Below, piece by piece: positions 15,781-16,927 of a stretch of DNA of 64,000 bases (positions are counted from its first letter, which is position 1; every line of letters begins with the position of its first letter). The notes under the pieces were generated by a model. It made no database searches. It saw only the letters and a list, made by a program, of their open reading frames with translations, and was not told where the DNA came from. A program made the position numbers and the translations under genes. Source of the stretch: Escherichia coli (lineage in GTDB: Bacteria > Pseudomonadota > Gammaproteobacteria > Enterobacterales > Enterobacteriaceae); NCBI RefSeq assembly GCF_048403405.1, contig NZ_CP183129.1. One strand, 5' to 3'.

Positions 15781-16574
15781 AATATATTCTCACCATGGTT
15801 AATGGTGAATATCGCTATTTTAATGGCGGTGATCTGGTTTTTGCGGATGCAAGCCAAATTCAAGTGGATAAGTGTGTTGAGAATTTCGTATTAGTTTCAA
15901 GAGACACGCTTTCATTATTTCTCCCGATGCTCAAGGAGGAGGCATTAAAACTTCATGCACATAAAAAAGTTCCTGCATTACTCGTTCATCACTGTACCAG
16001 AGATATTCCTGTTTTTCAGGAAGTTGCGCAACTATCGCAGAATAAGAATCTTCGCTATGCAGAAATGCTACGTAAAAGGGCATTAATCTTTGCGTTGTTA
16101 TCTGTTTTTCTTGAGGATATGCAGTTTATACCGTTACTACTGAACGTGTTGCAACCGAATATGCGAACACGAGTTTGTACGGTCATCAATAATAATATCG
16201 CCCATGAGTGGACATTAGCCCGAATCGCCAGCGAGCTGTTGATGAGTCCAAGCCTGTTAAAGAAAAAATTGCGCGAAGAAGGTACGTCATATTCACAGTT
16301 GCTTACTGAGTGTAGGATGCAGCGTGCTTTACAACTTATTGTTATATATGGTGTTTCAATTAAGCGAGTTGCAGTATCCTGTGGATATCACAGCGTGTCG
16401 TATTTTATTTACGTTTTTCGAAATTATTATGGGATGACGCCCACAGAGTATCAGGAGCGATCGGCGCAGGGATTGCCGAACCGTGACCCGGCGGCAAGTA
16501 TTGTTGCACAAGGGAATTTTTACGGCACTGACCGTTCTGCGGAAGGAATAAGATTATAGAGTTTTACTCAGACA

Positions 16575-16685
16575 TAAAAAAAACCCGGCATAGGGGACCG
16601 GGAAGAGGATAGTCTGCCGTCTCCAGACTAATAAACCGTTATAACACTCCCTGTTGGCACGGGAAACTTTGTGCTCTCAGTAAGT
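16575..16685 (-). ncRNA. gadY: Candidate GadY small RNA, antisense to the gadX 3' end; coordinates approximate
   Basis: Position in the gadX-gadW intergenic region; on the minus strand a hairpin (cccggtcccctatgccggg) followed by a U-run lies just downstream of the gadX stop, as expected for the GadY 3' end. Confidence 0.35.
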
Positions 16686-16927
16686 TAAATATAACTTTTA
16701 CTGGAAATAAGATCAGCCATTTTTTTATAAACATAAGCTATACGCTGTGCGAAAATATATTCGTGTTGCATTTACTTATTATCAATTAACTGTTATGCAA
16801 AACTACTTTGTGGATAAATTTTGGTCCTACCAAATCTGGCAGTTTTTGCGCTAAGAAACAGTCTGGCATCATTTCATTAGTATACTGAAATTGAAATAAT
16901 CGCAGTAATGAAATATAAGGGATAGTC

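Follow-up and report, generated by a model that had tools for sequence, protein, structure and literature searches.

The 64-kb stretch of E. coli DNA analysed here (the window) carries a canonical gadY gene, with its RNA gene and promoter untouched, which has most probably (a probability of about 85%) been uncoupled recently from its classical output by an IS1 insertion in gadX and a frameshift in gadW. The gene order ccp, gadA, gadX, gadY (antisense), gadW, mdtF is the standard order of the acid fitness island, as in K-12. The features on which the following account is based are listed below with their positions in the window.

13198..14598, plus strand: gadA (glutamate decarboxylase), intact, upstream of gadX
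14958..15003, plus strand: gadX 5′ fragment, codons 1-15 plus 1 nt, which reads MQPLHGNCLIAYARHR and stops inside the IS1 end
14995..15003, no strand: target-site duplication CAAGACATA, left copy
15004..15771, minus strand: IS1 element of 768 bp with insA (15441-15716) and insB′ (15019-15522), assigned by its repeats and length
15772..15780, no strand: target-site duplication CAAGACATA, right copy
15781..16559, plus strand: gadX 3′ fragment, starting at base 2 of codon 16 and running through codon 274 and the TAG stop
16560..16681, plus strand: gadX 3′ UTR and gadX-gadW spacer, the sense complement of GadY and its cis target (by complementarity; the target role is taken from the literature)
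16576..16681, minus strand: gadY small RNA gene (Rfam match at 16571-16684 and identity to K-12)
16576..16602, minus strand: GadY intrinsic terminator (terminator scan, Rfam structure line and predicted fold)
16682..16765, minus strand: gadY promoter region (identity to K-12, hexamers read from the sequence, AppY motif from PMC10057817)
16928..17654, plus strand: gadW with a 2-bp deletion at 17180|17181, where CAGTCACCCCCCATG has become CAGTCCCCCCATG

The Rfam search of the whole window revealed a match to GadY (RF00122) at 16684..16571 of the minus strand, which covers model positions 1-114 of 114 with a score of 150 bits and E = 8.3e-32, the gathering score being 45. The covariance-model alignment agrees with the RF00122 consensus at nearly all positions, and the minus strand of 16576..16681 is equivalent to K-12 b4452 (106 nt), to which it aligns with 0 differences. 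The candidate GadY of the original prediction, for which a covariance-model search had been proposed as a check, is thereby confirmed at full length. The 5′ end of the RNA reads ACUGAGAGCAC at 16681 on the minus strand, while the plus strand across 16560-16700 contains agacataaaaaaaacccggcataggggaccgggaagagg. The minus-strand hairpin after the gadX stop, quoted earlier as the expected 3′ end of GadY, is present as CCCGGUCCCCUAUGCCGGG at 16602..16584 and is followed by U8 at 16583..16576. In the consensus terminator scan its stem has 6 pairs, 5 of them G-C, with a loop of 7 nt, and it is the sole terminator-like site in 16400-17000, a region whose shuffles average 0.4 such sites. The minimum-free-energy fold of GadY displays the same three hairpins as the Rfam structure, the last of these being the Rho-independent terminator with its U-run.

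The fold energy of GadY is not unusual as compared to that of shuffled sequences (z = −0.73), 42 out of 200 of which are equally or more stable; GadY is therefore identified by homology and gene order and not by thermodynamics. Thermodynamic stability, considered as support for GadY, was dropped for the same reason, the minimum free energy being no better than that of shuffled sequence. An unremarkable energy would also suit a hairpin and U-run that arose by chance, or that serve as a mere terminator of gadX with no small RNA gene at this place. Chance is refuted by the full-length covariance match and by the 100% identity to the annotated K-12 ncRNA in the same gene order, and the plus-strand hairpin has no U-run after it, so that it does not constitute an intrinsic terminator of gadX; the probability of such a reading is negligible. 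On every feature that a sequence can test, the interval belongs to the GadY family, and it is the canonical gadY of E. coli. The RNA itself is already known and ordinary, having been characterised since 2004. As compared to GadY of K-12 (RF00122, b4452), the RNA gene is alike throughout, with the 106 nt and the 84 nt upstream of it identical. Both have the three-hairpin structure with its terminator, both lie in the gadX-gadW spacer on the strand opposite to these genes, and both are complementary to the gadX 3′ UTR; the context alone differs, gadX being cut by IS1 and gadW frameshifted in the window.

The gadX stop lies at 16557-16559 and the gadW start at 16928, both on the plus strand, and the 3′ end of GadY (16576) falls 16 nt beyond the stop. 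GadY is thus encoded on the strand opposite to both genes, and is antisense to the gadX 3′ UTR and gadX-gadW spacer but not to coding sequence. The overlap with the 3′ end of gadX, as originally predicted, holds for the 3′ UTR and the spacer and fails for the coding end. The complementary sense region of GadY is physically intact in the window.

Upstream of the GadY start, 84 nt match K-12 without a difference, the first one occurring at position 16766. A putative −10 hexamer, TATATT, is located at 16693-16688 of the minus strand, i.e. at −12 to −7, and ATGGCTGA at 16720-16713 of the same strand lies over the −35 region and fits the published AppY motif ATGSCWGM. This motif has been reported to overlap the −35 region of PgadY, to which AppY binds (PMC10057817). 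A promoter of its own, upstream of the 105-nt form and reported to be RpoS-dependent, can hence be recognised for GadY from the sequence by itself. Substitutions equivalent to 16690 (in the −10 hexamer of PgadY) and 16719 (in the AppY-motif region) occur in one metagenome contig (ENA ERZ28602907, L013), which keeps the 106-nt GadY unchanged despite them.

In the window gadX, 94.8% identical to the K-12 gene, begins at 14958, and a 768-bp IS1 (15004-15771) has inserted between the first and second bases of its codon 16. The perfect 9-bp target duplication occupies 14995-15003 on one side and 15772-15780 on the other, and when the outermost 23 bases of the two ends of the element are compared, 20 agree. 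Its ORFs of 91 aa (insA) and 167 aa (insB′) match NCBIfam NF033558 (transpos_IS1) at positions 1-81 and 76-199, respectively, and no other copy of IS1 was found within the 64-kb window. The length of 768 bp, the terminal inverted repeats of ∼23 bp, the 9-bp duplication and the presence of insA and insB′ are all those of the IS1 family, with no differences noted. The insertion is a textbook IS1 event with an intact element, and the reading of gadX as IS1-disrupted, made earlier from the letters of the DNA, is borne out by the length, the duplication and the transposase ORF matches.

The window has no uninterrupted 274-codon gadX ORF, the reading frame being broken in codon 16. The 5′ stub now encodes 16 residues. 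In the 3′ fragment, an in-frame ATG at 15795 (gadX codon 21) opens a 254-aa ORF, which corresponds to positions 21-274 of 274 of NCBIfam GadX (NF007432) with 548.7 bits, above the family cut-off. As this ORF survives, the allele may fall short of a complete null should transcripts reach it from IS1. A 254-aa GadX starting at codon 21 has also been called in many public contigs without IS1 (loci L009-L016), and the start codon of the allele is in question. The 254-aa product was considered as a marker of the disrupted allele in public assemblies and was dropped, as gene callers make the same product from intact loci.

These observations bear on whether GadY retains its cis target. Sense transcription across 16560-16681 might persist, whether because PgadX or gadA transcripts read through IS1 or because a hybrid promoter at the IS1 end is active, and might possibly support a GadX of residues 21-274, which we regard as somewhat unlikely. 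The ORF that opens at ATG 15795 runs uninterrupted to its stop and scores above the family cut-off, and codon 21 is picked as the start by gene callers in many intact loci. Furthermore, the outward IS1 end presents TTGGCA (15758-15763), followed 19 nt later by TATATT (15783-15788), and IS1 ends have reportedly supplied −35 elements for hybrid promoters. However, 19 nt is an unfavourable spacing for a sigma-70 promoter, and this candidate, read by eye, is weak; within the spacing limits of the promoter scan no plus-strand promoter-like site leaving IS1 was found. A transcript from the hybrid promoter would begin at or after the ATG, and no Shine-Dalgarno sequence is present in GACATAAATATATTCTCACC upstream of 15795. 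Moreover, IS1 insertions are strongly polar in both orientations, and gadW is frameshifted even if cleavage of the transcript goes on.

The gadW gene of the window is 97.4% identical to that of K-12, and lacks two bases, CA (or AC), relative to both K-12 and the closest relatives. The frame shifts at codon 86, by which the gene is split into ORFs of 94 aa and 155 aa; the window has no uninterrupted 242-codon gadW ORF, unless the deletion is a sequencing error. This lesion was absent from the original prediction, and gadW appears to be broken alongside gadX. It matters because the target of GadY is the gadX-gadW co-transcript.

The deletion adjoins a C6 run, at which short-read assemblies show assorted indels, as they do in other homopolymers. 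Among the Logan contigs, one (L007) has the identical gadW allele in a background of ∼1% divergence, a second (L008) has a contraction of C6 to C4 with the same truncated 94-aa product as L007, and in a third (L015) single bases are gained or lost at 17182, at 17433 and within the U-run of GadY. Either mutations or sequencing errors concentrate at this site. Were the 2-bp deletion an artefact of sequencing or assembly, only gadX would be broken and GadY could act on transcripts reaching gadW. The abutting homopolymer and the variation of L008 and L015 at the same spot and in other homopolymers would agree with such an error. However, the missing bases are CA (or AC) and the length of the C-run is unchanged, the rest of the 64-kb window has no indels as compared to strain 4621, which argues for a high-quality sequence, and the allele recurs in the divergent background of L007. 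An artefact is therefore considered quite unlikely, and the recent uncoupling of gadY by lesions in both neighbours is retained as the preferred reading.

The recency of both lesions is evident from the comparison of the window with its relatives, which include the human isolates MS 69-1 (colon), GN02461 and 4621 (both from blood), and also TUM1226, the source of which is not recorded. Several relatives are 100% identical to the window over 24.3 kb. A Shigella origin had come into consideration on account of the IS1, the pseudogenes and the shuA element, and was dropped because several E. coli genomes share this full identity and the window has a single IS1. The whole 64-kb window displays three differences only from strain 4621, the closest complete genome (L005 and L006): the IS1 with its duplication, the 2-bp gadW deletion and an intergenic A/G SNP at 57879 between two DUF4049 genes. 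In MS 69-1, GN02461 and 4621, GadX (274 aa) and GadW (242 aa) are both intact. Neither the codon-16 IS1 junction nor the gadW 2-bp-deletion allele occurs in any of the 5,426 complete E. coli genomes. As the lesions are absent from these genomes and are, besides one SNP, the sole changes with respect to 4621, both are private to the strain and recent.

Two of the three differences fall in paralogous regulator genes. Had three events been scattered randomly over 63 kb, both genes would be hit with a probability of ∼9e-4, a post hoc figure that hints at selection against GadX/GadW function and does not amount to proof. The lesions might then have been selected and not accidental, the human-associated lineage having shed GadX and GadW by two independent hits and kept GadY as a purely trans-acting RNA linked to Hfq or CsrA. 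We hold this to be speculative and on balance unlikely; if true, the strain would be a natural genetic background in which to isolate the gadX-independent functions of GadY. The 114-nt GadY query is found at an identity of at least 99%, in one chromosomal copy, in 5,412 of the 5,426 complete genomes, and the identity of a 151-bp segment of neighbouring gadW lies in the 90-99% bands in every one of them. GadY is, as judged from this conservation, under strong constraint across E. coli. Since GadY is near-invariant in the species, its intactness here is uninformative on selective retention. The 100% identity of GadY was also considered as a sign of retention after loss of the target, and was dropped in view of this near-invariance and of the very recent origin of the lesions.

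The disruption of this locus by IS1 has parallels. About 12 complete E. coli genomes have IS1 near the 5′ end of gadX at other positions, and the differing match spans suggest at least nine distinct insertion positions among them. Strain Nord58 has IS1 in the middle of gadX and retains the exact 106-nt GadY. In a clinical extraintestinal isolate, an IS1 between gadX and gadW arose within the patient and was accompanied by more GadA protein (Levert et al. 2010, PMC2947995). In the ∼12 genomes, with Nord58 counted among them, and in the case of Levert et al., as in the window, IS1 disrupts or separates the AraC-type regulators with the GadY sequence intact, and the events are from human clinical isolates. 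The window differs from these other insertions at gadX-gadY-gadW in the insertion site and in that gadW is also hit. The configuration, put forward earlier as unusual, is less so in view of the other gadX insertion sites and the within-patient event. The mildly unusual point is limited to the strain context, in which both regulators that flank GadY are lost through lesions private to the strain and GadY itself is untouched.

Other features of the window were also recorded. Two Rfam matches to AgrB at 42467-42550 and 42702-42785 of the minus strand (108 and 98 bits, respectively) are the tandem agrA/agrB antisense RNAs beside dinQ, between arsR and gor, which is standard for E. coli. An ES205 match at 22462-22533 of the minus strand (105 bits) lies just downstream of gadE and is probably an RNA derived from the gadE 3′ UTR; the ‘hypothetical protein’ annotated by RefSeq opposite to it in close relatives looks spurious. 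The haem-uptake chu locus is located within the acid fitness island, between yhiD and dctR, and the shuA/chuA 5′ UTR thermoregulator was matched directly upstream of chuA at 32207-32238 of the plus strand (60 bits against a gathering score of 58). A frameshifted ‘hypothetical protein’ pseudogene at ∼36957-38073 of the minus strand, flanked by slp and a permease gene, has been annotated in every close relative; being common to the lineage, it is older than the gadX and gadW lesions.

GadY has been reported as Hfq-binding RNAs of ∼105, 90 and 59 nt that raise gadX and gadW mRNA. The stabilisation of gadX mRNA by pairing of GadY with its 3′ UTR, as assumed in the original prediction, agrees with the statements on GadY in PMC10057817, PMC10783499 and PMC11230228, each of which cites Opdyke 2004 and 2011 for it. 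According to the same three papers, GadY binds Hfq, its pairing within the gadX-gadW mRNA leads to RNase III-assisted cleavage and higher levels of both halves, and loss of GadY lowers gadX mRNA by ∼75-80%. Beyond this cis role, abundant Hfq-mediated pairing of GadY with other mRNAs (PMC11230228), pairing with sdiA mRNA (PMC11300174) and titration of CsrA, which promotes pgaABCD-dependent biofilm (PMC10057817), have been described.

In the wild type, GadY pairs with the complementary gadX-gadW mRNA, RNase III-assisted cleavage yields more of the gadX and gadW halves, and more of both AraC-type acid-resistance regulators is made. In the strain of the window, sense transcription from PgadX or by gadA read-through must cross a polar IS1 and neither gene is full-length; we infer that the cis action of GadY yields no functional GadX or GadW, that its classical output is void and that any leftover function is in trans. 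Transcription of GadY could continue via the RpoS, AppY, ArcA or SdiA inputs, and the RNA could act through Hfq-bound mRNAs, sdiA mRNA and CsrA titration. The expectation of a truncated or absent target is thus met as far as gadX is disrupted, but GadY is not necessarily targetless, as gadX-independent roles have been reported.

The expression of GadY itself may be affected by the lesions. GadX and GadW are listed among the regulators binding the gadY promoter (PMC11230228), and the title of Tramonti 2008 likewise places both at that promoter; GadY levels may consequently be lower without them. Taken further, gadY would be a silent relic, the local activators being gone and the promoter barely used, and would be intact because the lesions are too recent for decay. 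The strain-private lesions, which leave no time for decay, and the invariance of GadY in the species at large are compatible with this. However, GadY is reported to be induced via RpoS at the entry into stationary phase and to be under direct activation by AppY, also when rpoS and gadE are absent (PMC10057817), inputs from ArcA and SdiA have been reported as well (PMC7286202, PMC11230228), and the promoter sequence is unchanged with respect to K-12. A silent gadY is therefore unlikely, and an RNA that is uncoupled from gadX and gadW with an intact gene and promoter remains the favoured interpretation.

The strain is accordingly what appears to be a natural double mutant of gadX and gadW in which gadY is intact. 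It could serve to tell the trans activities of GadY, i.e. those on Hfq-bound mRNAs and sdiA mRNA, CsrA titration and biofilm, apart from its cis role. It is also one more case in support of the view that IS1 and small indels repeatedly hit the GadX/GadW regulatory node in human-associated E. coli, and such recurrent lesions are in line with glutamate-dependent acid resistance often being tuned or lost outside the niche of stomach passage.
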